Assembly: GCA_964407495.1 (NCBI GenBank)
Contig: CAYOVP010000005.1
Coordinates: forward strand, 905-64,904
Source: an uncultured Thermodesulfobacteriota bacterium
Lineage (GTDB): Bacteria; Desulfobacterota; GWC2-55-46; JADFVP01
Reading direction: 5' to 3'
DNA length: 64,000 nucleotides
The translations under genes were made by a program, and so were the position numbers. The notes beneath the pieces were generated by a model. The model saw only the letters and a program-made list of their open reading frames with translations. It was not told the origin of the DNA and ran no database searches. The number at the start of each line of letters is the position of its first letter. Position 1 is the stretch's first letter. Shown piece by piece: positions 13,290 to 45,367 of this stretch.

Positions 13290-14699
13290 ATGAAAAAGAG
13301 AGAAAAAGACAGCCCTGGCGCCCAGGTATCCACGGCGGTCATCGTGGCCGCAGGGCTTGGTACGCGCATGGAGGGGTACGAAGAAGGGGCTGATCCAAAG
13401 CCACTCCTGCCCCTCGTGGGCGTGCCCATCATTGGCCGTGTCATGGCCGGCGCGGCAAGGGCAGGCATCAGCCGCCTTGTCGTTGTAATAGGCAACAAGG
13501 CAGAGGCCATGAGAGAGCGCCTCCCAACACTCACACCGCCAGGGGCTGAACTGATACTCGTAGAGAACACCCGATACAGAGAGCCCAACGGCCTGAGCCT
13601 CCTTGCGGGCCTTGGCGCAGCACATGGCCCCTTCGCGCTCCTCATGTCCGACCATATCTTCAGCCCGGAGCGCCTGGAACTCGCCATAAAGGCCTTTGGC
13701 AGGGACGGTACGCCGAGGCTCGTTGTAGAGAAGAAAGAGGACTTCACAGGAGACATCGAAGACGCCACCCTCGTAGGCGTAGACAACGAAGGCTTCATCC
13801 GTGCCATAGGAAAGGGCCTTACAGAGTATCACGCTATTGATACGGGCATGTTCGTCCTATGCCCAGACCTCGTGCGTGAGGCCGCAGAAAAGGCCGGCCC
13901 CTCGCCCTCCATCTCGGAGATAATGGGCGTACTCGCAGGAGAAAGAAAACTCAAGGCCCTCTTCCTTGATGCCGGCTACTGGCAGGACGTGGACACTCCC
14001 GCCGACATGCAAGAGGCCGAGAAGAAACTCTACGCATCTCTCGTAAAGCCTGCCGATGGTTTCATGGCCCGGCACGTCAACAGGAAGATAAGCCTCTTTA
14101 TAAGCACCCGTATCTGGCGCTTAGGCGTAACGCCCAACATGGTCACCACCTTTACCCTTGTCCTCGGCCTCCTGGCAGGCCTTGCCTTCTCGCGCGGCCC
14201 CGGGGCTGGCTGGGGGCTCCTTGGGGCCGCGCTCTTCCAGGCACACTCCATAATCGACGGCGTGGACGGAGAACTCGCCAGGCTCCTCCTCAAGGAGAGC
14301 AACCTTGGTTTCTGGTACGATATCGGTGCAGACAACATCACGCACATGGCCGTCTTCGCGGGCATTGCCATGGGGCAGAGGGCAGGGGGCGTGCCCGGGC
14401 CATGGGTGGCACTGGGCATTTTTTCAGCCCTCGGTGTCCTCGTCAGCGTAATAGCCCTCTCGCCCCTGCTGAAACCAGAGAGAAGAGGGCAAAAAGCGGC
14501 CACCAAGAAGAAGGGCCTCAAGAAGACAGTGGAGGCCCTTACGAGCCGGGACTTCTCCTATCTCCTCTTCCCCCTTGCCGTACTGCACTGGCTCGGCGGC
14601 TTTCTCTGGATAATAACCATAGGCACATGGATATACTCGGCACTGGTGATACTACTGAGGCTCAGGGCGCGGCCAGGGGGCGAGGGGGCCGCGGCCTGA
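13290..14699 (+). CDS. Bifunctional nucleotidyltransferase / CDP-alcohol phosphatidyltransferase (IPCT/DIPPS-like: inositol-1-phosphate cytidylyltransferase / di-myo-inositol-phosphate-phosphate synthase)
   Basis: N-terminal NTP_transferase 'VIVAAGLGTRM', C-terminal multi-TM domain with the CDP-OH_P_transf motif 'DGVDGELAR..G....G...D' and 'PNMVT'. Same two-domain order as archaeal/thermophilic IPCT-DIPPS fusions. Confidence 0.7.
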   Translation: MKKREKDSPGAQVSTAVIVAAGLGTRMEGYEEGADPKPLLPLVGVPIIGRVMAGAARAGISRLVVVIGNKAEAMRERLPTLTPPGAELILVENTRYREPNGLSLLAGLGAAHGPFALLMSDHIFSPERLELAIKAFGRDGTPRLVVEKKEDFTGDIEDATLVGVDNEGFIRAIGKGLTEYHAIDTGMFVLCPDLVREAAEKAGPSPSISEIMGVLAGERKLKALFLDAGYWQDVDTPADMQEAEKKLYASLVKPADGFMARHVNRKISLFISTRIWRLGVTPNMVTTFTLVLGLLAGLAFSRGPGAGWGLLGAALFQAHSIIDGVDGELARLLLKESNLGFWYDIGADNITHMAVFAGIAMGQRAGGVPGPWVALGIFSALGVLVSVIALSPLLKPERRGQKAATKKKGLKKTVEALTSRDFSYLLFPLAVLHWLGGFLWIITIGTWIYSALVILLRLRARPGGEGAAA

Positions 14700-15682
14700 A
14701 GGCGGTCCTTGTTGGGGCCGGTCTCCTGCTTGCGGCCTGGCTCATCTGGAGACTGGGCCCGGCAGAGGTCTGGAAGACCCTCGCAGGGGGGTGGTGGCCG
14801 GGGTTTGCCGGTGTAGTGGGGGCCTATCTCCTCCAGCAGGGCCTGGGGACCTTTGCTCTCTGGCTCCTTGGCACACGGAGAAGCGGGCCTGGATGGGCCA
14901 AGACAGGGGTCATGGGCCTTGCGCGCATCCGGTACATAGGCGAGGTCCTGAACTATGCCATGCCAACGGGAGGAATAGGAGGCGAGCCCTACAAACTCCT
15001 GGCCCTTTCCAGGAAAGAAGGGGTCAACTCGTCTTTCATGGCCCTTGCGGCGGCAAAGTTCCTCCACGTTGCGGCAGTAGGGCCCTTTGCCTCTGCTGTC
15101 TTTGCCGGAGCGGCCATAGAGGGCATGGGCGGGCCCAAGTGGCACCATACCTTCACAGTCATGGCCCTGGTCATGGCAGCCATGACCGTCTTCCTCTGGC
15201 TCGTCGTCCTCTGGAGCCGGACAGGCCGCGAACTCCTTGGAGGTTACTACCGCGTAAGGCACCGGGTGCCGAGAAAACTCCGCGGCCTCAGGCGCTTTCT
15301 CCACATCGATGTTGCAGCCTCAAAGGAGATAAAGCGCGCTCCGGCACGGGCCATTGTGGCATATGCCTGTTACATTGGCATGTGGGTAGCCGCATCCACC
15401 GAGTGGATAGCCATCTCTCGTGTCATAGGGGGGGGAGGCACAGGGCTCGGCCTCATCGGCGCCGGGCTCTTCGAGTGCGCCACGATAATAGTAGCCGCCG
15501 CTCTGCCCGTACCAGCAGGCATGGGCACCCAGGAGACAGGGAAGGCGGCTGTAGCGGTCCTACTCGGCCTCCCGCCCCAGGCGGGCCTTGCCATGAGCCT
15601 CGTCAGGAGGGGACGGGAGATACTCATGGTGGTAACGGGCATAGCCCTTGCCCTCTCCACCAGGAAAAAACAGGCCCCCTAA
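14627..15682 (+). CDS. hpnL: UPF0104/MprF-TM-like membrane protein, HpnL-like
   Basis: Multi-TM protein with a 'PTGGIGGEPYK' motif like the lysyl-PG synthase TM (flippase) region. First in-frame ATG is at 14627 (73-nt overlap with the upstream gene). The ORF track begins at 14402. Confidence 0.55.
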   Translation: MDILGTGDTTEAQGAARGRGGRGLKAVLVGAGLLLAAWLIWRLGPAEVWKTLAGGWWPGFAGVVGAYLLQQGLGTFALWLLGTRRSGPGWAKTGVMGLARIRYIGEVLNYAMPTGGIGGEPYKLLALSRKEGVNSSFMALAAAKFLHVAAVGPFASAVFAGAAIEGMGGPKWHHTFTVMALVMAAMTVFLWLVVLWSRTGRELLGGYYRVRHRVPRKLRGLRRFLHIDVAASKEIKRAPARAIVAYACYIGMWVAASTEWIAISRVIGGGGTGLGLIGAGLFECATIIVAAALPVPAGMGTQETGKAAVAVLLGLPPQAGLAMSLVRRGREILMVVTGIALALSTRKKQAP

Positions 15683-15796
15683 CCAAGATGTGGCGATACC
15701 AAGGGGCGCGCCCTTCTTGACACTCTGCCCCCCTGGTGCTAACTTTAATCAAGGCCCTTACCACGCATATTCTCCAGAGACCCAATACCCGGACAG

Positions 15797-17110
15797 ATGA
15801 AGATACATATAATCCAGCCCACGCACTTTGCGGCGCCGGGCTCACGCAAACTCTTCAAGACGAGAAAACTCAACCTCGTTCCCCTCTCCATCGCCTACCT
15901 CGCGGCCCTCATGCCAGAGGGGAGCGAGGTGCGCCTTACAGACGAACGGGTGCAGGACCTCGACCTCGACGAGGGCTTCGACCTCGTGCTCATCAGCGTC
16001 TGGACCATAAACTCGCTTCGGGCCTACGAGATAGCCGACGCCTACCGCTCCCGTGGAGTACCCGTCATACTGGGCGGGCCCCACTGCTTCTTCTATGCCG
16101 AGGAGGCCGCCGCCCACGCCGATGCCGTGGGCATAGGCGAGGGCGAGGTCATACTGCCGGATATCTTCAAAGACCTCAACAAGGGTAATCTAAAAAAATT
16201 CTACCATGCCCGCAAGTTTCACGACCTAAAGGGACTGCCCCTGCCGCGCCGAGACCTCCTCGACAGACGGGCCTTTACGCGCTTTCACACCGTTGCAGTG
16301 CAGACGAGCAGAGGGTGTCCCTTTTCGTGCGAGTTCTGCGCCGAGAGGTTCTATCTCGGTTCGAGGTACCGCATGCGGCCCGTTGACGAAGTGGTGGAGG
16401 AGATAAAGGCCACGGGGTCACGCCGCATATTCTTTGCGGACAGTACGTTCTCTGGCAATCGTGGCCGTACCATGCGGCTCATGGAGGCCCTTATTCCGCT
16501 GAAATTAAGGTGGAGCGCCCTCTGGACGGCCAACCGCGTCCTTGAACGCGACTTCATGGAACTGGCCAAGAAAAGCGGGCTCCTCCACGTGAACCTCGGC
16601 ATAGAGAGCATCAAACAGACCACCCTCGACGGCATGCACAAGAAGACCTCCAAGGCCGCTACCCTCAAAGACGTAATAAGGGCGCTTCGAGATCTTGATA
16701 TCAGTTTTTCCTTCAACCTCATCTTCGGCTGGGACACTGACCATGTGGAGGACTTCCAGACAACCCTCCAGTTCCTTAAAGAGAACAAGGTTCACGTCGC
16801 CTTCTTCAACTCCTTCTGCCCTTACAAGGGTACGCCGGTGTACAAGAAGTACCTCGAAGAGGGCCGTATAATAGACCCTGAGAACCTGAATCGCTGGCCC
16901 GGCATCTCGGCCCGTGTACGGCCAAAAAACTTCACTCCCGAGGAACTGGCCCGCGGCATCAGCGAGATGTACAGGGACTTCTACTCCTGGCCCTCCATAC
17001 TCAAGCGCCTGCCCATGCCAACGTCCATGGCCTCCATTACATCCTGGGTCATGAACATCTCGCAGAGAAAGATGGCCACAGGGAAAAACACCAACTTTGC
17101 AGAGTACTGA
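15797..17110 (+). CDS. hpnJ: B12-binding radical SAM protein, HpnJ-like
   Basis: N-terminal cobalamin-binding domain ('VPLSIAYLAA', 'VILGGPH') then radical SAM 'CPFSCEFC'. Cannot exclude an HpnP/HpnR-type methylase from sequence alone. Confidence 0.65.
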   Translation: MKIHIIQPTHFAAPGSRKLFKTRKLNLVPLSIAYLAALMPEGSEVRLTDERVQDLDLDEGFDLVLISVWTINSLRAYEIADAYRSRGVPVILGGPHCFFYAEEAAAHADAVGIGEGEVILPDIFKDLNKGNLKKFYHARKFHDLKGLPLPRRDLLDRRAFTRFHTVAVQTSRGCPFSCEFCAERFYLGSRYRMRPVDEVVEEIKATGSRRIFFADSTFSGNRGRTMRLMEALIPLKLRWSALWTANRVLERDFMELAKKSGLLHVNLGIESIKQTTLDGMHKKTSKAATLKDVIRALRDLDISFSFNLIFGWDTDHVEDFQTTLQFLKENKVHVAFFNSFCPYKGTPVYKKYLEEGRIIDPENLNRWPGISARVRPKNFTPEELARGISEMYRDFYSWPSILKRLPMPTSMASITSWVMNISQRKMATGKNTNFAEY

Positions 17111-17332
17111 ACCTCTGCCGGCACCGCTCTCCGGCAGAGGCTCCTGGCACTGATCTTTCCTTGTTCCTGTTTTCTAATGAGTTGGTTGTTGCGGGCTTGC
17201 CCCGGCCCTGCCTCGCTGACCGAACCTGCCGCTAATAGGGGTGTTCCCTGACCCGCTTTCTTTCTTGAGGATGACGATACTGTGCCCTGCGCGAAAGCCT
17301 CCGCAGGGGAACGTCAGGTCTGCGCTAAAAGC

Positions 17333-17375
17333 GGTTTTCTTTGTCTTACTTTCTTTTTTCCAAAAGAAAGTAAGG
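17333..17375 (+). repeat. Intergenic palindromic repeat, copy 1 (family consensus ggttttctttg-yc-yyactttctttttyccaaaagaaagtrrg)
   Basis: 'ggttttctttgtcttactttcttttttccaaaagaaagtaagg' contains the inverted repeat actttctttt/aaaagaaagt. Near-identical copy at 58203-58245. Confidence 0.8.
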
Positions 17376-17549
17376 TGTTTTTTCTGTCATTTTTTCCCTC
17401 TTCTCTTCTCTCTCCTGCCAGAGAGGGTCTTTCTTCCGTCATTACCTTTCATCCGGCAGGTTTGCAGGGCCGCACCCTCTGTGTTAAACTTCAGGGGTAA
17501 CCTCGGAACACAGTACTGGCCCAGGGAGGGCCTTGGCAGAGATCATCAT

Positions 17550-18596
17550 ATGAGAGAGACCAAGAGAGCAAAGACGAGGCCTGGCCCCATATTCATCTTG
17601 AGGGGGCTCAAGAGGCTCTATGACTCCAAGGCCCTATACGCCCAACTCGCCGTAACAGACGACTGTAACCTCTCGTGTTCATACTGTAACGAATTCACTC
17701 CCGGGGCAAGTCCTCCCGCCCTTTCAGACCTCAAGGCCCGTGTCGACCGTCTCTCGGCACTCGGTGTCATGGTCTTCGATCTCCTCGGCGGAGAGCCCCT
17801 TCTGCACCCCGATATCCTCGAAGTCATCGGCTACATCAAGGCGCCGGGACGCAGAGCAACCATTGTAACCCTCATTACCAATGGTTTTCTCCTGAGCGAA
17901 GACATGGTTAAGGGGCTCAACGACTCTGGCCTCGACATGATGCAGATAAGCGTCGACTCCGCGCATCCCACGGCGCAGTCCGAAAAGTCTCTGAAGTCGC
18001 TCCTGCCGCGCATGAAGATGCTCGCAAGAACGGCCCGGTTCAAGGTAAAGGTCCAGTCTGTTCTAACAAAAGAGACTGCGCGCGAATACGGTGAGTTCAG
18101 GAGGCTCCTGAAGGGGCTTCCCTTTGACTTTGGTTTCTCTCTGCTCCACAGGCCTGGCGGCGGCGTGGCGATAAAGGGAGAAGAGTTCGTCCGACTCCTG
18201 CGCGATGAGAATCTCTTTGCCGGCATGAACCTCTACCGCAGGCACGCCGAGGAGGCCCTGCTGGGAGATTTCTCCAGGCCCTGGAAGTGTCTTGGGGGGA
18301 GCAAATTTCTCTATGTGAACACCCGGGGCGAGGTCCAGTACTGCAGTCAGAACAGGGAGTTCAGGCGGCCCCTCGAAGACTTCGGAAGTAATGACGTCAG
18401 GGCCAACAGGAGACACAAGTCCTGCGAGGCAGGCTGTGTGCTCGGTTGCGCCAGGCTCATCTCCCATGCCCTCGGCGAGCCGGTGCGGACCATGCAGACG
18501 AGTATCGCGCTTCTAACCGGCATAAGGCGGGCCGGGGCAGAGGCAGTACGAGACCAGGGACCACCTCACAGCGCAAGAGGGCCGCGGCCCAGTTAG
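17550..18596 (+). CDS. Radical SAM protein with C-terminal SPASM/twitch-like Cys cluster
   Basis: 'CNLSCSYC' radical SAM motif and C-terminal 'C..G......G.V..C ... CEAGCVLGC'. Start placed at an internal ATG. The ORF track N-terminus (from 17241) runs through the repeat and is not credible. Confidence 0.65.
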   Translation: MRETKRAKTRPGPIFILRGLKRLYDSKALYAQLAVTDDCNLSCSYCNEFTPGASPPALSDLKARVDRLSALGVMVFDLLGGEPLLHPDILEVIGYIKAPGRRATIVTLITNGFLLSEDMVKGLNDSGLDMMQISVDSAHPTAQSEKSLKSLLPRMKMLARTARFKVKVQSVLTKETAREYGEFRRLLKGLPFDFGFSLLHRPGGGVAIKGEEFVRLLRDENLFAGMNLYRRHAEEALLGDFSRPWKCLGGSKFLYVNTRGEVQYCSQNREFRRPLEDFGSNDVRANRRHKSCEAGCVLGCARLISHALGEPVRTMQTSIALLTGIRRAGAEAVRDQGPPHSARGPRPS

Positions 18597-18607
18597 ACGC
18601 TCGAAAA

Positions 18608-19597
18608 ATGACCACCCTTGTTACAGGCGCAACGGGTTTTGTGGGATCTGCAGTGGTGCGGGCCCTTCTCAATAGGGGCCGGGCCGTACGGGTACTTGTG
18701 CGCCCTGAGAGCAACAGGCGCAACATCGTTGGCCTCGACGTAGAGGTCGTTACCGGCGACCTTACCAAGAGGGCCTCGCTCGTCCGCGCCATGAGGGGAT
18801 GCGTGGCCTTGTACCACGTTGCCGCAGACTACCGCCTCTGGGTGCCAAGGCCCGAGGAGATGTACGAGGCCAACGAGGCCGGCACGAGGCGGATCATGGA
18901 GGCCGCGCTCGAGGCAGGCATCGAGCAGATAGTATACACAAGTAGCGTAGCGACACTCGGGCTCCGCGCCGACGGCAGGCCTGCCGACGAAGACACGCCA
19001 TCTAGCCTAAAAGACATGATCGGCCACTACAAGAGGAGCAAATTCCTTGCAGAGCAAGAGGTCAAGAAACTCATAAGAGAAGAAGGCCTCCGGGCAGTCA
19101 TCGTCAACCCCTCTACGCCCGTTGGCCCTCGCGATGTGAAGCCCACACCCACGGGACGGCTCATAGTCAATGCCCTTGCAGGCAAGATGCCTGCCTACGT
19201 AGACACGGGCCTGAATATCGTGCACGTGGACGACGTTGCCGAGGGGCATGTCCTCGCCATGGAGCGGGGAAGAATTGGCCAACGGTACATACTCGGGGGA
19301 GAGAACCTCACTCTCTCGGAGATACTCGAACGCCTTGCCACGATAGGAGGGAGAAAACCCCCGCGCATCCGCCTGCCCCACGGCCTCGTAATGCCCCTTG
19401 CCCATGTATCAGAGGCCTGGGCAAGGCTCACAGGCGCCAAGAACCCCATGCTTACGAAAGACGGGGTAAAGATGGCCAGAAAACACATGTTCTTCACGAG
19501 CAGAAAGGCCATGGAAGAACTGGACTACCGCCCAAGACCCGCCATAGAGGCGCTCCGCGATGCCGCGAGATGGTTCAGAGAGAATAACTATGCCTGA
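18608..19597 (+). CDS. hpnA: NAD-dependent epimerase/dehydratase, HpnA-like
   Basis: Rossmann 'LVTGATGFVGSAV' at the N-terminus and SDR-extended-family length. Sits inside the hpn locus. Confidence 0.75.
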   Translation: MTTLVTGATGFVGSAVVRALLNRGRAVRVLVRPESNRRNIVGLDVEVVTGDLTKRASLVRAMRGCVALYHVAADYRLWVPRPEEMYEANEAGTRRIMEAALEAGIEQIVYTSSVATLGLRADGRPADEDTPSSLKDMIGHYKRSKFLAEQEVKKLIREEGLRAVIVNPSTPVGPRDVKPTPTGRLIVNALAGKMPAYVDTGLNIVHVDDVAEGHVLAMERGRIGQRYILGGENLTLSEILERLATIGGRKPPRIRLPHGLVMPLAHVSEAWARLTGAKNPMLTKDGVKMARKHMFFTSRKAMEELDYRPRPAIEALRDAARWFRENNYA

Positions 19598-19680
19598 TGG
19601 GACTTGTTTCTGCTATAATTATGAGATATGGTCAGTAGGAGGAAAGAGCAAGGCCCTGGTTTGGCACCATGAAAGACCTT

Positions 19681-19722
19681 CCCCTTTCTTTTAGAAAAAA
19701 GAAAGGGGAGCAAAGAAAAACC
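19681..19722 (-). repeat. Intergenic palindromic repeat, copy 2 (reverse orientation)
   Basis: 'cccctttcttttagaaaaaagaaaggggagcaaagaaaaacc' carries the same arm/tail structure. Upstream of ispH. Confidence 0.7.
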
Positions 19723-19795
19723 AGTTTTTGCCTATTAATCCAGGAACGAAAAACACAGGGCAAAACCCGCGTCTCCATAGAGAGGACAACCTGGC

Positions 19796-20710
19796 ATGAA
19801 ACTTCTTCTTGCAGAACCAAGGGGCTTCTGCGCAGGCGTAGAACGCGCTGTACTTACTGTGGAGAGGGCTCTCGAGAAGTACGGGGCTCCCATATACGTA
19901 CGCCATGAGATAGTGCACAACCGCCACGTGGTGGACAGTCTAAAGAACAAGGGAGTAATCTTTGTAGACGAACTCGACGAGGTCCCGGACGGCTCGGTGG
20001 TCATATTCAGCGCCCACGGCGTGTCAAGGAAAGTCAAGGCAGAGGGTCAGAGACGCGACCTCATCGTGATAGACGCCACCTGTCCTCTTGTGACAAAGGT
20101 GCACAGGGAGGCGCGGAGAAACGCCAGTGAGGGCCGCGAGCAGATACTCATCGGCCACGCAGGCCACCCCGAGGTGGTGGGGACGATGGGGCAGGTGGAT
20201 GGCCCCATGCACCTCGTCTCCTCGCCAGAGGACGTGGAGGCACTGGAGATAAAAAACCCGGACAACGTATCATACGTGACACAGACCACGCTCAGCATGG
20301 ACGACATGGCCGACATAGTGGCGGCGCTAAAGAAACGCTTCAGGAACATCCGGGGCCCCATGCGAGAGAACATATGCTATGCGACTCAGAACCGCCAGAA
20401 CGCCGTCAAGGCAGTGATAAAAAAGGTAGACCTACTTATAGTCGTAGGGGCCAGGAACAGTTCGAATTCCAACCGCCTCCGTGAACTGGGCGCAAGGTAC
20501 GGCGTACCATCCTACCTCGTGAGTACAGCAACTGACATAAGAGAGGAATGGCTCAATGGGGCCAGGAGGGTGGCCATTACAGCAGGGGCCTCGGCGCCCG
20601 AACTCCTCGTAAAGGAAGTCATCGAGTACCTGAAGGCCAGGTCTGGCGGCCTTACAATCGAGGACATAAAGGTAACGGACGAGAACGTGAAGTTCAGCCT
20701 CCCCATATAG
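19796..20710 (+). CDS. ispH: 4-hydroxy-3-methylbut-2-enyl diphosphate reductase
   Basis: '[14 protein letters not shown]', '[10 protein letters not shown]' and conserved Cys of IspH/LytB. An ispH copy is a frequent member of hpn clusters. Confidence 0.85.
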
Positions 20711-20741
20711 CCCGATACGGCAGAAGGGATAGAGGTAAGGC

Positions 20742-21806
20742 ATGGGTGTACCGCTCATACAACAGGTCCGCATAGGGGCCTATATCATGACGAGGAGCCT
20801 CAGGAGGGAGAAGCGCTTCCCCCTCGTCCTCATGCTTGAACCCCTCTTTCAATGCAACCTCGCCTGCGCAGGTTGCGGAAAGATAGACTACCCGCCCGAG
20901 ATCCTCAAGAAGAGACTCTCTGTGGAGGAATGTGTAGATGCGGCCCTTGAGTGCGGGGCGCCGGTAGTATCCATACCAGGCGGAGAGCCCCTCATACACC
21001 CGGAGATAGGCAGGATAGTACGGGGCCTTACGGGGCTGAAGAAGTTCGTATACCTCTGTACAAACGCCCTTCTTCTGAAGCGCAAGATGGACCTCTTCGA
21101 ACCAAGCCCCTACCTCACCTTCAGCATACACCTCGACGGCCTCGAGGAACGCCACGACAGCCTCGTGTCCTGCGAAGGGGTCTTCGAGAGCGCCGTGGAG
21201 GCCATAAGACTTGCCAAGAAACGGGGCTTTCGCGTTACCACCAACACCACCATTTACGGGAACGAATCGCCTGAAGAGGCAGTACGTCTCTTCGAGTTCA
21301 TCTCCGGCCTCGGCGTAGAGGGCATGACCTTGTCACCAGCCTTTCACTACGGCAACGCAAGAGAAAAGAAAGATTTTCTCGGACGGGAGGAGGCCGTGCT
21401 CATCATGAGGAGACTTATCAGGGAGGGCGCGATCCGGGGTTGGAAGTTCAATCACAGCACTCTCTTCCTCGACTTCCTCGCAGGCAACCAGGACTACCGT
21501 TGCTCCCCCTGGGGCAATCCCACGCGCAATATCTTCGGCTGGCAGATGCCCTGTTATCTCCTCAACGAGGGATACGCATCTTCTTACAGGGAACTCATGG
21601 AGAAGACGGACTGGGAGGCCTATGGCTATGACAGGAACGCCAAGTGCGCAGACTGCATGGTACACTGCGGGTATGAGCCAACGGCTGTCATGGACACACT
21701 TCGCCACCCCCTGAAGGCCCTCGTGGCCAAGTTGGGAGGCGTGGACCGAAAGGGGGCAGAGAGGCCACGCCCCGTAAAGACCATTCCGCCCCAGGAGACA
21801 ACCTAA
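20742..21806 (+). CDS. hpnH: Adenosylhopane synthase (radical SAM) HpnH
   Basis: 'EPLFQCNLACAGCGKI' radical SAM motif and C-terminal 'CADCMVHCGYE' (DUF3463-like), as in HpnH. Confidence 0.85.
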   Translation: MGVPLIQQVRIGAYIMTRSLRREKRFPLVLMLEPLFQCNLACAGCGKIDYPPEILKKRLSVEECVDAALECGAPVVSIPGGEPLIHPEIGRIVRGLTGLKKFVYLCTNALLLKRKMDLFEPSPYLTFSIHLDGLEERHDSLVSCEGVFESAVEAIRLAKKRGFRVTTNTTIYGNESPEEAVRLFEFISGLGVEGMTLSPAFHYGNAREKKDFLGREEAVLIMRRLIREGAIRGWKFNHSTLFLDFLAGNQDYRCSPWGNPTRNIFGWQMPCYLLNEGYASSYRELMEKTDWEAYGYDRNAKCADCMVHCGYEPTAVMDTLRHPLKALVAKLGGVDRKGAERPRPVKTIPPQETT

Positions 21807-21846
21807 CCCCACCTACCCTTAGCACCCCCAGACAACCTGGTCGCCG

Positions 21847-22389
21847 CTAAAACCCTATGGCAAGAGTAAGGAGGATCTCGTCCTCTCCAGGGTTCTTGTC
21901 GTGCACATTGGCATTGGATAGGTGGCCAAGGCGGAGCCCGACCCTCATGCGTTCCAAGACCTGGTAGTCGAAGTTGAGGGCAAGGCGGAATGTAAAGACA
22001 CCGCCGAGGTTTCTGCTCGACCCCTTGTGATACCCGCCCATGGCCGCAACAGGCGTAAGAACGAAGTCTCCATACAAGAGGTCTGCGTAAAAGCCGGCAT
22101 ACCCGTAGAACGCGCCGTCTGTGTTTGCAAGGATACCTATGAGGGGACCCACGAAGTAGTACTTCTTTCCAAAACGCAGTTCCCCGTTGAGTTCGCCCGC
22201 GCCGTCTCCATCGTCCACATTGTGAAAAGAAAAGGCACCTGCCCCAATATCTGCGTAATTGTACGAATCCCCTGCAACACTGAAGTTGCCAGATGAATAG
22301 AAGGGCGTCTGCCTGCCACCGGCAAGGGCCGTAGAAGCGGCAAAGAGGAGGAAGAAAAAGAGAATGCCTCTTGTGAGAAAAATGCGCAC
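21847..22389 (-). CDS. Outer-membrane beta-barrel protein, PagL-like acyloxyacyl hydrolase family
   Basis: Signal peptide, alternating-hydrophobic beta-strands, 'HLSNA' His/Ser region and a C-terminal aromatic residue. Confidence 0.5.
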   Translation of the reverse strand: MRIFLTRGILFFFLLFAASTALAGGRQTPFYSSGNFSVAGDSYNYADIGAGAFSFHNVDDGDGAGELNGELRFGKKYYFVGPLIGILANTDGAFYGYAGFYADLLYGDFVLTPVAAMGGYHKGSSRNLGGVFTFRLALNFDYQVLERMRVGLRLGHLSNANVHDKNPGEDEILLTLAIGF

Positions 22390-22652
22390 CTATTTCTCCT
22401 TTGTAGTAAAGACAAGGAAGGCAGAAAAAAACCGCTTAGTAAAAAAAGGAAAATACTTAAGGGAATCGCGTTACAGCGGCCCTGATCCGTAAAAGAGGCC
22501 GTTTCTCAGGGCCCAAGGCAAGGTGCAGCAAAAAAATCGCTTCTGGAAAGACGGTGAGACTATAACACTTGATGAGCGAGATGTAAAGCAGTGGACTGAG
22601 GACTCGAAAGGATTTGAGGCAAGAAAGCCTGGCCAGCAGACCCCTCTTACCC

Positions 22653-23438
22653 TCACTGGCCCTGCGCTCCACTGCCAGGGACGAGTGCAGAAAAAAAACC
22701 CTCGTCCACGAGGGCGCGCCAGGCGCGGCCCAGGGAAGATGTTGCCGAGTCAAAGGACTTCTTGAGATGCACCATCTCCTTCAGAAGGGAGGGCCGCTTC
22801 AGACATCTGCCAAGAAGTCTGCCTGTCATCAGACCACCCTCATCGTCCAGGCAGTCGTAAAGGTCTTCAGATATGCCTTGCTCTGCCGTGTCGCAGACAG
22901 CGCGCATCACAAGAAAGGGCACGCCCTCTCTTGCCGCCAGAGCGGCCACGGCCCCGCTCTCCATGTCAACGGCAAGGGCCCCGCTCTCCCGGAAGAGCCT
23001 GGCCTTGGCCCCTGCAGTGAGTACGGCCCCCGTGGTGCTCACCAGAGGGCCACGCGTAAAAACCACCCCCGCCCTCTTCAGCGCACCTGCCGCAAGGTCG
23101 AGTAAGTCCTTCCGGGCGGCATGGAAACCGCCCCCCCCTTCAAGTATGACCCCTCCGGCGAGAACCACGTCCCCTGAACCGAGTCCTGGTGAGAGGGCAC
23201 CGGAGACGCCAAGACTGAGGAGCAACTCCGCCCCCTCATCAAGGGCCAAGGCCGTTGCCACGGTGGCCCGCTCCATGCCCACGCCAGAGAGCACTGCTAT
23301 GAGTTCACTTACACCAAGGCTCGTCCTCGCCACGGTTGGCCCGCCCTTGCTGGTGCCGCCGCCTGAGGCCTCCCACCTTACGCGGCCAAGCACTGCACGT
23401 GCCTCGGCCCTGAGCGCCAATACGAGACCAACCCTCAC
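22653..23438 (-). CDS. hpnG: PNP/MTA-nucleosidase-family hopanoid-associated phosphorylase HpnG-like
   Basis: PNP_UDP fold motifs ('GVGMERA', 'AVDMESGA'). Directly downstream of shc with a 4-nt overlap. Confidence 0.7.
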   Translation of the reverse strand: MRVGLVLALRAEARAVLGRVRWEASGGGTSKGGPTVARTSLGVSELIAVLSGVGMERATVATALALDEGAELLLSLGVSGALSPGLGSGDVVLAGGVILEGGGGFHAARKDLLDLAAGALKRAGVVFTRGPLVSTTGAVLTAGAKARLFRESGALAVDMESGAVAALAAREGVPFLVMRAVCDTAEQGISEDLYDCLDDEGGLMTGRLLGRCLKRPSLLKEMVHLKKSFDSATSSLGRAWRALVDEGFFSALVPGSGAQGQ

Positions 23439-25507
23439 AGCCCGAGTCTCTTGATGACCGGAATGGTCCAGTCTGGTGGGCGCTCGAGAGATACCTCGTC
23501 CTGGCGGGTCTTTCCTGCATCCTTGAGCCGCCTGTACATGCCAAGGGCCCAGAGAGGAAAGTACAGCCTGTAGCCATGGTACTTGAGATAGAAGACGCGG
23601 GGAAAGCCAGTGCCTGTATAGAATCTCTCATCCCAGGTTCCATCTGGCTTCTGGGTCTGAAGGAGATACTCGATACCCCGCCTCACGGCCTCATCGTCAT
23701 GACCCGCAACGGCCATAAGCCCCATGACGGCCCATGCGGTCTGGGATGGAGTACTCGGGCCCATGCCTGCAAGGCGCGCGTCGTCATAACTCCGGCAGGT
23801 CTCGCCCCACCCGCCGTCGTCGTTCTGGCGCGAGCGAAGCCACGCCGCGGCCTTCTGTATGTAGGGCTGTCCCATCTCCTCACCTGCCCGCTTAAGGCCA
23901 GCCAAGACGGACCACGTGCCGTATATGTAATTTACGCCCCATCTTCCGAACCATGCGCCGCACTCTTCCTGCTCGGCCCGGAGAAACTCGATGGCACGGG
24001 CTACAGGCGGAAAATCGCGCCTGTAGCCCAGCATGGCGAGGACCTCTACACACCGGCCCGTAACGTCAGAGGTGCTGGGGTCGAGGAGCGCACCGTGGTC
24101 GGCAAAGGGGATATCATTCAGGTAGGTGTAGTTGTTGTCGATATCAAATGCGCCCCAGCCGCCGTCCGAACTCTGCATGCCTATTATCCAGTTTACGGCC
24201 CTTGCTATGGGTTCCCTGTATTCTTTCTTCTCCATGGCGCCTGCACGTAGAAGAGACATCACCACCATGGCCGTGTCGTCAGTGTCGGGATAGAAGTCAT
24301 TCTCGTACTGAAAGGCCCAGCCACCAGGCTCCAGATCAGGGGCATTCACAGACCAGTCGCCCCTTACGAATATCTGGTGCTCGAGGAGCCACTTCACGGC
24401 CTTCCCGGCCCTCTCCTCCAAGCCCTCTCCGCCTGCCTCGGCCATGGCCGAGAGAGATAGACAGGTGTCCCAGACCGGAGAGAAACAGGGCTGGCAGAAC
24501 CCCTCGTCGCCGTGCTCCACGAGAAGGTCGTCGAGGGCCTTCATGCCATGGACCATATCAGGGTGGTCCTTGCTGTACCCCAGTACGCTCAGGGCGATGA
24601 GGCAGTTCACCATTGGAGGGAATATGGCCCCTATGCCGCCCTCGCCTCGCATGCGCTCCAAGATGAAACGCTCGGCAAGTGCGGTGGCCCGGTCCTGCCA
24701 GAGTCTCGATATGATGGGATCGAGTCTCTTTATGATACGGTCCACGAGTATGAAGAAGTTCTTGCGCGGCCTGCCGGTGACAAACTTGTCTATGTGGCCG
24801 ATCTTGTCCGGAGGTGATACGAAGAGTTCATAGAGACACTCCTCGGGTCTGAGCGTACAGACCGTCCGGCGGGAGCAGAAGACGAGGAGCGTGACTATCA
24901 CGGTGCGCGACCAGTATGAGACCTTGTCGATATGAAAGGGAAACCAGCGCGGCAGGAGCATTATCTGCACGGGTATGGCGGGTACGGTGCGCCAGGGTAT
25001 CTGACCGTAAAGGGCAAGGAGTATGCGCGTAAAGACATTGACTCGTGCGGCCCCGCCCAGGCTGAGTATGAGTTGCCTTGCGCGGACCATGTGGGGTTCG
25101 TCCGGCGAGTCGCCAGAGAGTTTCAAGGCAAAGTAGGCCTTCACAGTGGCGCTTATGTCCGAGAACCCGCCCTCATAGAGCGGCCAGCCTCCATCGGCAA
25201 GTTGCCCCCGCCGTATGTAGCGCGTGAGGCGTTCCTTCAGGGCCGGATCCATCTCGCGTTCGAGGAAACGCTGGAGTATTATGTACTCGGCGGGGATGGT
25301 GACGTCGGCCTCGAGGTCGAATACCCAGTTTCCAGCCTCCGCCTGCAACCCGCCAAGGGCCCTGAAGGCCCTCTCTGCAGACTCTTCGAGCCCAGGGTAG
25401 GCCCCCAGCCGGTCCTCGACGCGCCGAGCCGCCGGGCCGGCTACCCTGAGCCTCCCTCTCGACCTCTTCATCATGCCAAAGACCTTCTTCTCCTTCATCT
25501 CGCTCAT
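23435..25507 (-). CDS. shc: Squalene-hopene cyclase
   Basis: Catalytic 'DTDDTAMV' (DxDD) motif and multiple QW motifs ('GGWG'). Start placed at an internal ATG with a plausible RBS. The ORF track extends to 25684. Confidence 0.9.
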   Translation of the reverse strand: MSEMKEKKVFGMMKRSRGRLRVAGPAARRVEDRLGAYPGLEESAERAFRALGGLQAEAGNWVFDLEADVTIPAEYIILQRFLEREMDPALKERLTRYIRRGQLADGGWPLYEGGFSDISATVKAYFALKLSGDSPDEPHMVRARQLILSLGGAARVNVFTRILLALYGQIPWRTVPAIPVQIMLLPRWFPFHIDKVSYWSRTVIVTLLVFCSRRTVCTLRPEECLYELFVSPPDKIGHIDKFVTGRPRKNFFILVDRIIKRLDPIISRLWQDRATALAERFILERMRGEGGIGAIFPPMVNCLIALSVLGYSKDHPDMVHGMKALDDLLVEHGDEGFCQPCFSPVWDTCLSLSAMAEAGGEGLEERAGKAVKWLLEHQIFVRGDWSVNAPDLEPGGWAFQYENDFYPDTDDTAMVVMSLLRAGAMEKKEYREPIARAVNWIIGMQSSDGGWGAFDIDNNYTYLNDIPFADHGALLDPSTSDVTGRCVEVLAMLGYRRDFPPVARAIEFLRAEQEECGAWFGRWGVNYIYGTWSVLAGLKRAGEEMGQPYIQKAAAWLRSRQNDDGGWGETCRSYDDARLAGMGPSTPSQTAWAVMGLMAVAGHDDEAVRRGIEYLLQTQKPDGTWDERFYTGTGFPRVFYLKYHGYRLYFPLWALGMYRRLKDAGKTRQDEVSLERPPDWTIPVIKRLGL

Positions 25508-25888
25508 GCCTATCTCTCTACGACGCTCCTCAGATATGATGATGCTCTGAAAGAAAATAAAGGGTTGATTACAGTACTCGATTCTACTAAGGATTAATTG
25601 TACCCATGTTTCTGTCCATTGCAAGCGAAAATAGGGCGAGACATGCCTGCCGCGCCCCAGTACGTAAGGCCGCTTCAGGGTCATGGGGACTCAAGGGTTT
25701 TTTCTTGACTCTTGTTTTTTTTATACCTAAAATGCACAGATACATCCATGCCCGTTGCTATTGGCCCGCCGTACCGTGGGGCTACGCAATCGGAAGCGAG
25801 ACAGCGGGTTGCAAGGCCTGTATGTCAAACCATCTAACAGAACCTTTATTCATCTTGTCTTGAGAAGATGCAAGGAGGGCCACCCCCC

Positions 25889-27040
25889 ATGTCCAGCATA
25901 AAGGTAGCCATAGTGGGAGCGGGCAACTGCGCCAGTTCCTTTATCCAGGGGATTCACTACTACAGGACAAAGACCCCTGAGGAGGCAGTAGGCCTCATGC
26001 ACTGGGAGATAGGCGGGTTCAGGCCCGGTGACATAGACGTAGTTGCGGCCTTTGACATAGACGGGCGCAAGGTAGGCCGTGACATTTCAGAGGCCATCTT
26101 CAGCCCGCCCAACTGCACCCTTGTCTTTCAGGACGATATCCCACCTACAGGCGTTCGCGTAAAGATGGGCCGCGTGCTCGACGGCTTTCCTCCTCACATG
26201 GAGAACTTCAACGAAGAGCGGCGCTTTGTTCTCGCCAGCGAGGCAGAGCCCACAAAAGAAGAAGTAGTGGCCACGCTCCGTGAATCCGGGGCCGAGATAC
26301 TCCTCAACTATCTCCCCGTTGGCTCGGAAAAGGCGACCCGCTTCTATGCCGAGTGCGCCCTCGATGCAGGTCTTGCCATGGTGAACAACATACCGGTCTT
26401 CATAGCCAGTGACGAGACCTGGGCCGCGAGGTTCAGGGAAAGGGGCCTGCCCATTATCGGCGACGACATAAAGGCCCAGCTCGGTGCCACCATCACGCAC
26501 AGGACACTTACGGACCTCTTCAGGAAACGGGGCGTACGCCTCGAACGTACCTACCAACTCAACACAGGGGGCAATACCGACTTTCTGAACATGCTCCAGA
26601 GGACACGCCTCCTCTCCAAGAAGATATCAAAGACCGAGGCCGTCCAGTCCGTGGCAGGGGAGCGTCTCGACGAGGAGAATATACACGTTGGTCCAAGCGA
26701 TTACGTACCCTGGCAGAACGACAACAAGATCTGCTTCATACGCATGGAGGGCAGACTATTCGGCGATGTGCCCATGAACCTCGAACTGCGACTCTCGGTG
26801 GAAGACTCGCCAAACTCGGCAGGAGTGGCAATAGACGCTGTGCGTTGCTGTAAACTGGCCATCGAGCGCGGTCAATCGGGCGTACTCTGCCCGCCATCGG
26901 CATACCTCATGAAACACCCTCCGGTGCAGTTCAATGACGATGATGCGTACAAGATGATAGAGGACTTCATCAGCGGAGACCATGAAAAGAACGAAGAACC
27001 GGCCATAATGGAGAACCACAAGAAGGCAGGTTGCCTCTAA
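25889..27040 (+). CDS. ino1: myo-Inositol-1-phosphate synthase
   Basis: Near-colinear with actinobacterial/archaeal MIPS: '[12 protein letters not shown]', 'YLPVGSE', '[15 protein letters not shown]', '[12 protein letters not shown]', 'DSPNSAG', 'AYLMKHPP'. ATG at 25889 has an AAGGAGG RBS. Confidence 0.9.
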
Positions 27041-27182: not shown

Positions 27183-27839
27183 CTAACCTTTCTTGTGGTG
27201 ATGCTTCGGCGCATAGGGTTTTCTGCCCTTGAGTTTCTTCTTGAGGCCCTTTACGAGGTCTTCGTATGACGAGTTCTGTATTATCTGGTTGAACTGCGTG
27301 CGGTAGTTGCTCACAAGGCTCACGCCCTCGATGACGATATCATAGGCCACCCACCCCTTGCCCTTCTTCATCATCCTGTAGTCTATGGGCACCTCGGTAT
27401 CCTTCCTCGTCACTACCAGGGTCTTGACCACGCCTCGGGTTCCCTTCTTGTTAATCTTCTCTCCCTTGAAGTAGACCTTGGCGTCATAGTTGGCCTCTAT
27501 CTTGTCCATGTACGAGTCCTCGAGGAGTTCGCTGAAGAGGGCCGTGAACTCGCCTCTCTCTGCATCCGTGCGTTTTCGCCAGTGTATCCCAAGAGACCTC
27601 TTCGTCATCTCCTCGAAGTCTATGGCATCCTCGATGGCGGCGCGGACCTTGGCCCTGCGCTCTGCGGTATGTTCCTTGCCCATGAGGGCCGGGTCGTTGA
27701 GCACCACAAAGGCCCTATCTATAGCGGATCTGACCGTGGCGGTCATGGCAGTTGTCTCGGTAGAGGCGCTGAGGCGCGCCATTGCCAGTACAAGGACGAG
27801 CGCTACAGCCAGTGTGCAGAGCCTGGAGATCTTCTTCAT
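27183..27839 (-). CDS. mlaC: Phospholipid-binding protein MlaC
   Basis: Signal peptide plus Ttg2D domain. Close paralog of the 8432-9082 protein ('YDIVIEGVSLVSNYRTQF' identical). ATG with a GGAGGT RBS. Confidence 0.75.
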   Translation of the reverse strand: MKKISRLCTLAVALVLVLAMARLSASTETTAMTATVRSAIDRAFVVLNDPALMGKEHTAERRAKVRAAIEDAIDFEEMTKRSLGIHWRKRTDAERGEFTALFSELLEDSYMDKIEANYDAKVYFKGEKINKKGTRGVVKTLVVTRKDTEVPIDYRMMKKGKGWVAYDIVIEGVSLVSNYRTQFNQIIQNSSYEDLVKGLKKKLKGRKPYAPKHHHKKG

Positions 27840-27872
27840 GGCAACCACCTCCAGTTTTAGAGATGCAGGGCC

Positions 27873-28952: not shown

Positions 28953-28989
28953 GATATGTCTCCCTCGTTAAGGTACGCGGCGGAGCGGG

Positions 28990-29430: not shown

Positions 29431-29491
29431 TACTTCCCCCTCTTGTTCGATAGGGTACCTGCCCGGTCACCGGACAGGGCGTGTTAAAGGT

Positions 29492-30238: not shown

Positions 30239-30266
30239 GACAACCTCGCGCGCCCCTGCCTGCCCA

Positions 30267-45331: not shown

Positions 45332-45367
45332 AGGGAGCCTCTCCTGGTTGTTGAGGTACGGGTCTTC

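Follow-up and report, generated by a model that had tools for sequence, protein, structure and literature searches.

Bifunctional IPCT/DIPPS enzymes are described from hyperthermophiles (A. fulgidus AF0263, PDB 4MND; model NF041135), where they are encoded directly after MIPS. M. tuberculosis PgsA1 (6H53) and R. salmoninarum PIPS (5D91), which make inositol phospholipid, are six-helix class I CDP-alcohol phosphotransferases whose CDP donor bears the lipid and whose acceptor, inositol-1-phosphate, is bound through R155 and R195; R155 of the M. tuberculosis PIP synthase binds the acceptor phosphate (PMC4634129). The six-helix architecture goes with soluble acceptors, and lipid-acceptor enzymes usually have 3-4 helices more, as do eukaryotic CPT1 and CEPT1 for their lipid acceptor (Clarke et al., PMC4634129); the latter two (8ERO, 8GYW) pair a soluble CDP-alcohol donor with a lipid whose hydroxyl is the acceptor. 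A putative inositol-lipid cluster of Bacteroides vulgatus/Prevotella contains MIPS, an NTP transferase, a CDP-alcohol transferase and a HAD hydrolase (Heaver et al. 2022, PMC9246714), with PI and inositol sphingolipids as proposed products in hosts without hopanoids. In the (hpn) loci for hopanoids, which are sterol-like lipids, HpnI/HpnK/HpnJ (cyclitol ether) and HpnO (aminotriol) form head-group modules after HpnH and HpnG, and their chemistry is glycosyl transfer, deacetylation plus ring contraction, or transamination, with a phosphodiester in none.

The window, that is, the whole 64,000-nucleotide stretch of DNA analysed here, carries at 13290..14699 (+ strand) a fusion gene for an IPCT-like domain and a CDP-alcohol phosphotransferase of the class termed 'NxxH' below. 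The product resembles the hyperthermophile IPCT/DIPPS in domain order and fold, sharing a conserved cytidylyltransferase domain, an intact CDP-binding signature and six transmembrane helices, but is about 27-35% identical to it, has an extra basic loop (residues 395-420), and its gene lies in a hopanoid locus, where LPG_synthase_TM is the partner, instead of directly after MIPS. Compared with PIPS, it lacks an R155 equivalent and has its own IPCT domain, implying inositol as the donor-side group. The chemical logic proposed here is that of CPT1/CEPT1, although the sequence match to these is weak (22 bits) and any added membrane module would come from the separate (in relatives, fused) LPG_synthase_TM protein. 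The Bacteroides cluster, compared by gene content, is like the window in its nearby LPG-synthase-like gene and in the proposed CDP-inositol donor and lipid acceptor, but differs in having separate proteins and a HAD hydrolase. A head-group module in an hpn locus is likewise what the window would share with the HpnI/HpnK/HpnJ and HpnO systems; hpnI, hpnK, hpnJ and hpnO themselves were not found in the window, and for HpnI, HpnK and HpnO, whose absence had been predicted, profile searches detected none among the scanned window ORFs.

Two halves of the fusion protein

Profile searches (PF and NCBIfam) of the 469-aa product assigned residues 16-247 to NTP_transf_3/NTP_transferase and 281-406 to CDP-OH_P_transf, within a cytidylyltransferase-like N-terminal domain of ~15-247 and a six-helix C-terminal domain of ~256-460. 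Its top NCBIfam match was the bifunctional IPCT/DIPPS model NF041135 with 216 bits, far under the equivalog cutoff of 580, and its closest solved structure was A. fulgidus IPCT-DIPPS 4MND (E 9e-39). The AlphaFold model (pLDDT 86.7) had six helices in the transferase half and gave a target-normalised TM-score of 0.78 against 4MND. These results bore out the original prediction of a bifunctional NTP-transferase/CDP-alcohol transferase with an IPCT/DIPPS-like domain order.

The N-terminal half aligned along its full length with the IPCT part of NF041135 (130 bits), with other nucleotidyltransferase models reaching 53 bits at most. It had 33 strongly conserved positions in common with the canonical clade and a single conservative switch, and its fold gave TM-scores of 0.84-0.89 against the A. 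fulgidus and T. maritima IPCTs. The cytidylyltransferase half is thus conserved as in true IPCTs, and this full-length conservation with structurally characterised IPCTs is why we expect the N-terminal domain to make CDP-inositol.

The C-terminal domain scored 72 bits with DIPPS, 45 with archaetidylinositol-phosphate synthase, 41 with PIP synthase and 20 with PGP synthase profiles, and is thus closer to DIPPS than to the other three, in line with the original prediction. The CDP-AP signature, D323-x2-D-G-x2-A-R...G340-x3-D344-x3-D348, was complete. However, the DIPPS profile matched the CDP-binding TM1-3 only, whereas a canonical member is matched across the whole domain, and the acceptor-side half, TM4-6, had no match to DIPPS, AIPS or PIPS profiles. 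Three motifs, D4-R-x-x-D, S-Y and R-D-x-R, are kept in AfDIPPS, AF2299, MtPIPS and 110 canonical loci; at the same places the window's clade carries D4-N-x-x-H, P-L and R-D-F-S/T. In the window's enzyme, the catalytic motif D323...D348 is followed by N349 and H352 (14256..14345, + strand), which align with R and D of DIPPS, AF2299 and PIPS, and R420-D-F-S423-Y (14547..14561, + strand) occupies the site of the canonical R-D-x-R, whose second Arg, absent here, aligns with MtPIPS R155. In this between-clade alignment TM4-6 is less certain than TM1-3, and the key positions are anchored beside the invariant D348 and R420-D421. As the three lost motifs surround the inositol-phosphate acceptor site common to DIPPS, AF2299 and PIP synthase, we infer that the acceptor of the window's transferase probably differs from the inositol-1-phosphate of DIPP synthases.

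Gene neighbourhood in the window and in related loci

The fusion gene had been predicted to lie between hpnN and hpnL/hpnJ. The positions and the name HpnN were confirmed, and the other two names were not. HpnN, an RND-type hopanoid transporter (10330..13005, - strand; TIGR03480, 1015 bits, cutoff 752), is encoded divergently from the fusion gene, and beyond it lie an HpnM-like MlaC-family periplasmic lipid carrier (8432..9082, - strand; PF05494, 173 bits), a gene that relatives keep upstream of hpnN, and a second MlaC-like protein (9556..10215, + strand; PF05494, 144 bits), also kept in relatives. On the other side follows an LPG_synthase_TM (MprF-flippase-like) membrane protein (PF03706, 69 bits) on the + strand, which ends at 15682 and starts at 14627 or 14816. 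Its HpnL label applies at the superfamily level only (TIGR03476, 57 bits, cutoff 196), and its predicted co-orientation with the fusion gene was confirmed. From the ATG at 14627 it would overlap the fusion gene by 73 nt, as had been proposed; this start is plausible because a JGI gene call for the identical contig uses it and because no other ATG/GTG/TTG precedes the first predicted helix. In a 70%-identical ortholog, the start lies 27 nt past the fusion-gene stop.

Two radical SAM genes come next on the + strand. Profile searches assigned the product of 15797..17110 to B12-binding radical SAM proteins of an unnamed family; the HpnJ label again fits at the superfamily level only (TIGR03471, 92 bits, cutoff 578), and the protein is neither HpnP nor HpnR. 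Its best PDB match was AprD4 6FD2 (52 bits), and such a gene adjoins NxxH-class transferases in three related loci (L090, L096, L171). The second (17481..18596, start uncertain) gave weak MoaA-, PqqE- or Tes-like matches, and its homolog adjoins the fusion gene in L012, L022 and L101. Further along the + strand are HpnA, a hopanoid-associated NAD-dependent epimerase/dehydratase-like protein (18608..19597; TIGR03466, 519 bits, cutoff 368), IspH of isoprenoid precursor synthesis (19796..20710; profile search) and HpnH, the adenosylhopane synthase of C35 side-chain extension (20742..21806; TIGR03470, 509 bits, cutoff 225). The - strand carries a PagL-family outer-membrane beta-barrel protein (21847..22389; PF09411, 43 bits), found in hopanoid locus L103 too, an HpnG-like nucleoside phosphorylase (22653..23438; PF01048, 89 bits) and the squalene-hopene cyclase gene shc (23435..25684; TIGR01507, 787 bits, cutoff 431).

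Directly beside shc, as predicted, is ino1 for a myo-inositol-1-phosphate synthase of the short archaeal/bacterial type (25868/25889..27040, + strand; PF01658 Inos-1-P_synth, 123 bits; called as 383 aa), divergent from shc with 183-204 bp between the starts. It is followed by a complete Mla-like lipid transport set of MlaC, MlaA, MlaD, MlaF and MlaE (27183..31034, - strand; profile search), in which MlaF lies at 29492-30238 and MlaE at 30267-31034, both on the - strand. Two related loci, L094 and L095, have both ino1 adjoining shc and an equivalent Mla-like set. The window also encodes a PgaC-like GT2 (33585-34997) and an IMPase-family protein (51727-52527).

We then sorted 175 related loci, from MAG or metagenome contigs and phylogenetically non-independent, by motif class. 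Among 110 loci of the canonical RxxD class, none had hopanoid genes near or LPG_synthase_TM adjoining, and 26 had MIPS immediately adjacent; in the window's own NxxH class, by contrast, hopanoid genes were near in 17 of 31 loci and LPG_synthase_TM adjoined in 17 of 31. Hopanoid genes were also near in 4 of the 7 GxxT loci. The NxxH loci show several gene arrangements in at least two phyla, and the hopanoid-linked loci at least four distinct ones: the Thermodesulfobacteriota type of the window, a Desulfobacteraceae type, a Planctomycetota type with a long MIPS non-orthologous to the window's, and a Methylomirabilales-like type with SHC, MIPS and the fusion gene all on one strand. Because the arrangement recurs in relatives, the fusion gene and the hopanoid genes are not together by chance. 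The expectation that relatives would keep the fusion gene inside hopanoid loci was thus borne out, and the reading as a DIP solute pathway interleaved with hpn genes by coincidence was weakened, both by these counts and by the TM1-3-only DIPPS match with its three lost motifs.

On the other hand, three clade members (L006, L007, L092) carry LPG_synthase_TM with hopanoid genes absent within 10 kb, as do triple fusions with LPG_synthase_TM found among more distant relatives of the fusion protein (P0089-P0099); therefore, the clade's general acceptor need not be a hopanoid. Split versions adjoin HpnN-like RND, MlaC and OEP genes, with SHC absent from the fragment.

Candidate acceptors

Comparative genomics favours, as the best reading, that phospho-inositol would be transferred from CDP-inositol onto a membrane lipid over synthesis of a DIP solute. 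A membrane lipid with an inositol-phosphate head group, raised originally as a possibility, is thus the favoured reading, and a bacteriohopanepolyol acceptor, the second part of that possibility, is a suggestion of the neighbourhood.

The lipid could instead be a phosphoglycerolipid, with CDP-inositol and diacylglycerol or an ether-lipid analogue giving phosphatidylinositol by a Kennedy-like reaction; hopanoids would then be neighbours and not substrates, the LPG_synthase_TM protein would flip the lipid, and the hopanoids' own HpnN/Mla-like machinery would export it. Such a route was proposed for the Bacteroidetes cluster (Heaver et al. 2022, PMC9246714), and it suits the clade members and triple fusions lacking hopanoid genes as well as the SHC-less split versions. 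Nevertheless, we consider it possible but rather unlikely, as conserved glycerolipid synthesis genes are absent from these loci, in several lineages shc, hpnH or hpnA, and not transporters alone, share an operon-like run with the gene, and the Bacteroidetes pathway is still putative.

An ordinary IPCT/DIPPS making di-myo-inositol-phosphate-phosphate, near hpn genes through a common heat or osmotic stress response, would explain the architecture, the top profile and structural matches, the six C-terminal helices and the IMPase-family gene. A thermoprotective solute is not absurd, because the proteome looks moderately thermophilic (the amino-acid composition gives a rough optimal growth temperature estimate of ~61 C). 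This explanation is nevertheless improbable given the score far under the equivalog cutoff, the unmatched acceptor-side half and the loss of three motifs common to all inositol-phosphate-accepting relatives. Furthermore, in canonical-class loci MIPS is the gene immediately upstream and hopanoid or LPG_synthase_TM genes never lie close by, and fusion and translational coupling to a flippase-like membrane protein serve no purpose for a solute.

Loss of the phosphate-binding arginine might also simply reflect a soluble acceptor that bears no phosphate; free myo-inositol, for example, would yield DIP in one step, and glycerol would yield glycero-phospho-inositol. Any unphosphorylated acceptor is compatible with the missing R-x-x-R and D4-R, the IMPase-family gene could provide free inositol, and the modelled six-helix architecture suits a soluble acceptor and would speak against a lipid one. 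We regard this option as very improbable, since it leaves the repeated hopanoid neighbourhood and the LPG_synthase_TM adjacency and fusion unexplained.

Finally, it is highly improbable that the lipid sits on the donor side as in CDP-diacylglycerol-dependent enzymes, with ribosylhopane phosphate from HpnG-catalysed phosphorolysis activated by the nucleotidyltransferase domain to CDP-ribosylhopane and coupled to inositol or another alcohol: sugar-1-phosphates are substrates of the NTP_transferase superfamily and the expected phosphorylated product of HpnG, a nucleoside-phosphorylase homolog, has never been observed (review PMC13459092), but the N-domain retains practically every position that true IPCTs conserve, and the recruitment of two non-orthologous MIPS types beside the gene points to inositol-1-phosphate as the activated substrate.

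Proposed pathway

We therefore return to a lipid from the hopanoid machinery and tentatively propose, with confidence a little short of even, that the locus encodes a pathway adding an inositol-phosphate head group to a membrane lipid that this machinery makes or exports. Ino1, judged by family membership, would convert glucose-6-phosphate to inositol-1-phosphate, from which the N-terminal domain of the fusion protein would form CDP-inositol with CTP. The C-terminal six-helix CDP-alcohol phosphotransferase would then transfer phospho-inositol to an alcohol other than inositol-1-phosphate. The leading candidate for this acceptor, from gene neighbourhood alone, is a C35 bacteriohopanepolyol, the product of SHC, HpnH, HpnG and HpnA, and modification of one of its side-chain hydroxyls would yield an anionic inositol-phospho-hopanoid. 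The LPG_synthase_TM partner may either flip the product into the outer leaflet or provide the site for the lipid acceptor. Transport onward to the outer membrane may be the task of HpnN and the MlaC/MlaA-like proteins, and both radical SAM enzymes may have a tailoring role. The searchable literature yielded no inositol-phosphate hopanoid-type lipid; if the proposal is true, this would be an inositol-phosphate membrane lipid not described before.

Gene content of the hopanoid locus

The genes around the fusion gene (13290-14699, +; Pfam domains at residues 16-247 and 281-406) were mapped by Pfam and NCBIfam scans of the large ORFs in the window, which belongs to a 127-kb Thermodesulfobacteriota MAG contig. 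The JGI contig Ga0117756_1000027 encodes an identical fusion protein in the same gene order. The original prediction had placed the fusion gene and ino1 inside a hopanoid locus, and this observation stands, in substance and in coordinates, because HpnN (10330-13005, -; 1015 bits, curated cutoff 752), HpnA (18608-19597, +; 519 bits, cutoff 368), HpnH (20742-21806, +; 509 bits, cutoff 225) and SHC (23435-25684, -; 787 bits, cutoff 431) all pass their curated cutoffs. Ino1 (25889-27040, +) matched the Inos-1-P_synth catalytic domain PF01658 with 123 bits and was 70-85% identical to many proteins named inositol-3-phosphate synthase by their sources; against the mycothiol-specific equivalog TIGR03450 it scored 446 bits, under the cutoff of 638. 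The same scans identified two MlaC-like genes (8432-9082, -; 9556-10215, +), a B12-binding radical SAM gene (15797-17110, +), a second radical SAM gene (17481-18596, +), IspH (19796-20710, +), a PagL-family gene (21847-22389, -), an HpnG-like phosphorylase (22653-23438, -) and a run of MlaC, MlaA, MlaD, MlaF and MlaE (27183-31034, -).

The two genes downstream of the fusion gene had been named HpnL and HpnJ, and both identities were rejected on NCBIfam cutoffs, the proteins belonging to the right superfamilies and not to those families. For HpnL, 56.7 bits were obtained on TIGR03476 (curated cutoff 195.65), and only the broader Pfam family LPG_synthase_TM was matched, with 69 bits (14627/14816-15682, +); for HpnJ, 91.5 bits were obtained on TIGR03471 (cutoff 577.6). 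TIGR04072 was the best NCBIfam match of the B12 radical SAM protein (113 bits, cutoff 360). The predicted 73-nt overlap of the LPG_synthase_TM gene with the fusion gene is plausible: the ATG at 14627 is used in one JGI gene call and is the sole ATG, GTG or TTG upstream of the domain's first helix. In related loci, the LPG_synthase_TM ortholog overlaps the fusion gene by 76 nt (L089) or starts 27 nt past its stop (L003).

No protein of the operon is more conserved than the B12 radical SAM protein, which is 83-84% identical where the fusion protein is 67-70% identical. It falls in no named family, in the PDB it matched the diol dehydratase AprD4 best, and PDB and family searches identified the chemistry of neither radical SAM protein. 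Its homologs also lie directly downstream of transferases of the window's class in other arrangements (L090, 11395-12708; L096, 3969-5177; L171, 3105-4565).

Several further features of the window were recorded. PagL-family outer-membrane beta-barrel genes occur in hopanoid loci of two unrelated lineages (21847-22389, -, in the window; 5771-6430 in L103) and may serve in hopanoid outer-membrane machinery instead of acting as lipid A deacylases. A GT2 gene at 33585-34997 was considered as HpnI and rejected as PgaC-like. At 40951-42015 (-), a stand-alone protein distinct from that of the LPG_synthase_TM gene at 14627-15682 matched MprF in its C-terminal synthase region only (84 bits, profile positions 542-811 of 841). 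At 43978-45964, this Thermodesulfobacteriota MAG also has a LuxI-type autoinducer synthase with two LuxR-type receptor genes next to it. An inositol monophosphatase family gene (51727-52527, +; PF00459, 240 bits), some 25 kb away from the locus, could dephosphorylate an inositol-phosphate product or be a housekeeping SuhB. An inverted repeat with perfect 9-bp arms and a 4-nt spacer, CTTTCTTTT-N4-AAAAGAAAG, is present in 7 copies with at most one mismatch (17349-17370, 19684-19705, 49516-49537, 50036-50057, 53227-53248, 55880-55901 and 58219-58240), compared with 0.02 expected from shuffles. The copies are mostly intergenic, two being at an ORF start and two within the hopanoid operon region, and a REP-like element, a terminator hairpin and an operator are all candidate identities for the repeat. 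The earlier remark on a thermophile-like character is reasonable because a growth optimum of roughly 61 C was estimated from the amino-acid composition of 17 proteins, but this estimate is not decisive.

Domains and acceptor site of the fusion protein

The fusion protein joins an N-terminal nucleotidyltransferase and a C-terminal CDP-alcohol phosphotransferase in a single chain, the same overall architecture as that of bifunctional IPCT/DIPPS (EC 2.7.7.74 / 2.7.8.34). Its closest solved relative is the A. fulgidus IPCT-DIPPS 4MND (E 9e-39), and its AlphaFold model (pLDDT 86.7, pTM 0.84) matched 4MND over the full length with a target-normalised TM-score of 0.78. The best NCBIfam match was the IPCT/DIPPS model NF041135, at 216 bits against an equivalog cutoff of 580 for a model built on Thermococcales. 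When the halves were scanned separately, the N-domain scored 130 bits over the IPCT part (profile positions 2-217), the next nucleotidyltransferase model reaching 53 bits, and it superposed on the IPCT structures 2XME and 4JD0 from A. fulgidus and T. maritima with TM-scores of 0.84-0.89. The C-domain scored 72 bits over positions 226-347 only, that is, the CDP-binding helices TM1-3, and no match to its TM4-6 half was found in the profile scan. The canonical homolog of L042, a locus with adjacent MIPS, covered positions 226-417 with 144 bits and matched archaetidylinositol-phosphate synthase over its full length with 105 bits. The PF01066 class I signature D-x2-D-G-x2-A-R...G-x3-D-x3-D is present on TM2 and TM3, and its residues D323, D326, G327, A330, R331, G340, D344 and D348 are invariant in the window's clade. 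The model has six membrane helices and one loop helix and lacks the extra C-terminal helices of the CPT/CEPT type.

A distance tree and alignment were built from 202 homologs taken from the protein search and 93 loci. Every sequence at least 48% identical to the window protein fell in one clade, and the members of the canonical clade have MIPS immediately upstream. In the N-domain, the two clades have 33 strongly conserved positions in common, with one conservative switch; in the C-domain, five positions are conserved within each clade yet differ between them, and an Arg invariant in the canonical clade is missing from the window's clade. Acceptor-site residues were then mapped from Clarke et al. 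2015 (PMC4634129) and PDB alignments, the motif alignment including fragments of AfDIPPS, AF2299 and the M. tuberculosis PIP synthase (MtPIPS) from PDB matches. Three motifs are common to AfDIPPS, AF2299, MtPIPS and the canonical clade: D4-R-x-x-D, directly after the catalytic fourth Asp (D4), S/A-Y in TM4 and R-D/P-x-R in TM5. The window's clade instead has D348-N349-x-x-H352, P392-L and R420-D-F-S/T423 (S423 in the window protein) and an inserted basic loop at residues ~395-420, the TM4-6 alignment between clades being harder than that of TM1-3. The second Arg of R-x-x-R aligns with MtPIPS R155; this residue, whose R. salmoninarum counterpart is R153, coordinates the phosphate group of the acceptor inositol phosphate and is needed for activity (Clarke et al., PMC4634129).

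The window protein therefore lacks the acceptor-side motifs that are present in 110 canonical loci, and, because of this and its partial profile coverage, canonical DIPPS membership was rejected. As read from the alignments, the CDP-binding and catalytic residues are kept and the acceptor-holding side is changed, so that the sequence speaks directly against an ordinary DIPP synthase; such a change would not by itself name the new acceptor.

Within the canonical group, the transferase domains of L042 and other MIPS-adjacent bacterial loci were much nearer to AF2299, with 145 bits, than to the A. fulgidus DIPPS that has been characterised, with 78 bits. The deposited name of AF2299 states no substrate, and Clarke et al. 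describe it only as not processing lipids (PMC4634129); the fact that its close relatives adjoin MIPS hints at a role involving inositol phosphate.

Genomic arrangements and membrane partner

The 175 fetched loci were sorted by the residues directly after D4 and searched with the window's proteins and the LPG_synthase_TM profile. None of the 110 loci of the canonical RxxD class was near hopanoid genes or adjoined an LPG_synthase_TM gene, and 26 had MIPS immediately adjacent. Among the 31 loci of the NxxH class, to which the window belongs, 17 were near hopanoid genes, 17 adjoined LPG_synthase_TM and none had MIPS immediately adjacent, many of the remaining loci being contigs shorter than 3 kb; for the seven GxxT loci the corresponding numbers were 4, 1 and 3. 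All these counts overstate independence because the loci are MAG- or metagenome-derived and mutually related, and a metagenome scan brought no more than seven new members to the window's clade, several of them on short contigs.

The hopanoid-linked loci do not share a single inherited arrangement. The window type (i) occurs in Thermodesulfobacteriota MAGs at 63-77% identity, and two further MAGs keep both the divergent pair of ino1 and shc and the complete Mla set. In the Desulfobacteraceae type (ii), HpnG, MlaC, OEP, HpnN, radical SAM, HpnH, DUF116 and HpnA lie on one strand with the fusion gene divergent; no LPG_synthase_TM gene was found in these loci, and in L090 and L096 the fusion gene and the following B12 radical SAM gene overlap. 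Type (iii), from Planctomycetota, has HpnA/HpnH/SHC followed by MlaC, HpnN, MlaA, LPG_synthase_TM, the fusion gene, a conserved lipoprotein-like protein and a long, eukaryote-type MIPS non-orthologous to the window's Ino1, after which mevalonate-pathway genes come in L067. Type (iv), Methylomirabilales-like, places OEP, MlaC, HpnN, MlaC, PagL-like, SHC, MIPS and the fusion gene on a single strand. In the split type (v), from peat metagenomes, a stand-alone NTP transferase, an ATP-grasp-like gene, LPG_synthase_TM, OEP, HpnN and MlaC precede an NxxH transferase whose N-domain is degenerate. Two unrelated MIPS types have thus been recruited next to the same transferase clade, which argues that inositol-1-phosphate is the substrate activated.

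Two further observations were made on these loci. The lipoprotein-like protein of type (iii), always between the fusion gene and MIPS (L093, 10526-11329; L067, 11284-12303; L012, 2460-3370; L102), has a signal peptide with lipobox, a Pro/Ala-rich linker and a ~160-aa C-terminal domain without a Pfam match. In two hopanoid-linked loci (L099, 8220-14202; L024, 785-7824), a second module beside the fusion gene comprises an HAD hydrolase, a class-III aminotransferase, an ATP-grasp-like protein and a second CDP-alcohol transferase, with a stand-alone NTP transferase also in L099, which suggests a further, different phospho-alcohol head group.

The link to LPG_synthase_TM, a family that includes the MprF flippase domain, extends to ten homologs (P0089-P0099) in which NTP transferase, CDP-alcohol transferase and LPG_synthase_TM form a single chain, and to L006, L007 and L092, where the LPG_synthase_TM gene lies immediately upstream of the fusion gene, with an overlap of 1-4 nt. 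An LPG-synthase-like gene also stands beside both types of Bacteroidetes inositol-lipid cluster, of which the alternative type contains MIPS, an NTP transferase, a CDP-alcohol transferase and an HAD hydrolase (Heaver et al. 2022, PMC9246714). By gene content, MIPS, NTP transferase, CDP-alcohol transferase and LPG_synthase_TM are all present in the window; no HAD gene was found in the window's locus, while related L099 and L024 have one. Such a membrane partner is readily understood with a lipid product, whereas the making of a cytoplasmic solute offers it no evident function. Eukaryotic CDP-alcohol transferases with lipid acceptors have 3-4 additional helices (Clarke et al., PMC4634129), and the six helices of the fusion protein, taken alone, count against a lipid acceptor; LPG_synthase_TM may supply the extra membrane module that these eukaryotic enzymes have in cis.

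Proposed reaction and its implications

In the pathway we propose from computational evidence, Ino1 would form inositol-1-phosphate, the N-domain would convert it to CDP-inositol, and the C-domain would move phospho-inositol onto a hydroxyl not belonging to inositol-1-phosphate. The acceptor is probably a membrane lipid, and among membrane lipids a C35 bacteriohopanepolyol (BHP) is the first candidate, since several independent arrangements place the gene among shc, hpnH, hpnG and hpnA. The chief rival acceptor is a glycerolipid, from which a Kennedy-like route would yield PI; the hopanoid genes would then lie nearby because export machinery is shared. This alternative is favoured by clade members in which LPG_synthase_TM is present and hopanoid genes are missing within 10 kb. 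Solute readings are possible and fit the gene context poorly. Returning to the hopanoid acceptor, we tentatively propose, at somewhat less than even odds, that the NxxH enzyme makes the first known phosphodiester-linked hopanoid, an inositol-phospho-BHP from CDP-inositol and bacteriohopanetetrol. This 'hopanoid phospholipid' would be flipped by the MprF-like membrane protein, and HpnN together with Mla-like proteins would export it; it would be widespread among anaerobic Thermodesulfobacteriota, Planctomycetota and Methylomirabilota and would have escaped standard BHP work-ups.

Hopanoids, from which geohopane biomarkers derive, are among the major membrane lipids of bacteria. To our knowledge, their polar derivatives all carry sugar, cyclitol-ether, amino or acyl groups, and none is phosphate-linked. 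A full-text literature search, in which geochemistry journals were thinly covered, found no inositol- or phosphate-linked hopanoid, which is not proof of absence, and no paper tying hopanoids to inositol, CDP-inositol or CDP-alcohol transferases. A hopanoid microsynteny preprint (10.1101/2025.07.29.667474) proposes MlaC-like and MlaA-like neighbours (HpnM, HpnS) as hopanoid transport factors, calls the function of HpnL unknown and nowhere mentions inositol. Its supplementary file 8 (Table S8), covering families in 20 ORFs around shc, lists the CDP-alcohol phosphatidyltransferase IPR000462 as family 6 (frequency 1409) and its fusion with the MobA-like NTP transferase IPR025877 as family 338 (2 cases), on both of which the text is silent; we give this table little weight because its copy appears partly scrambled.

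If the hopanoid acceptor is right, a new lipid class is also predicted. A conserved hopanoid-linked CDP-inositol transferase would, if true, mean a new anionic lipid class in poorly studied anaerobes, provide a concrete mass to seek in environmental lipidomes, and suggest a role for the LPG_synthase_TM (HpnL-like) proteins of hopanoid loci. Metagenome studies routinely label all such genes as DIP thermoprotection or piezoprotection genes, so the residues after D4 would matter as a simple signature separating solute-making DIPP synthases from likely lipid-modifying relatives.
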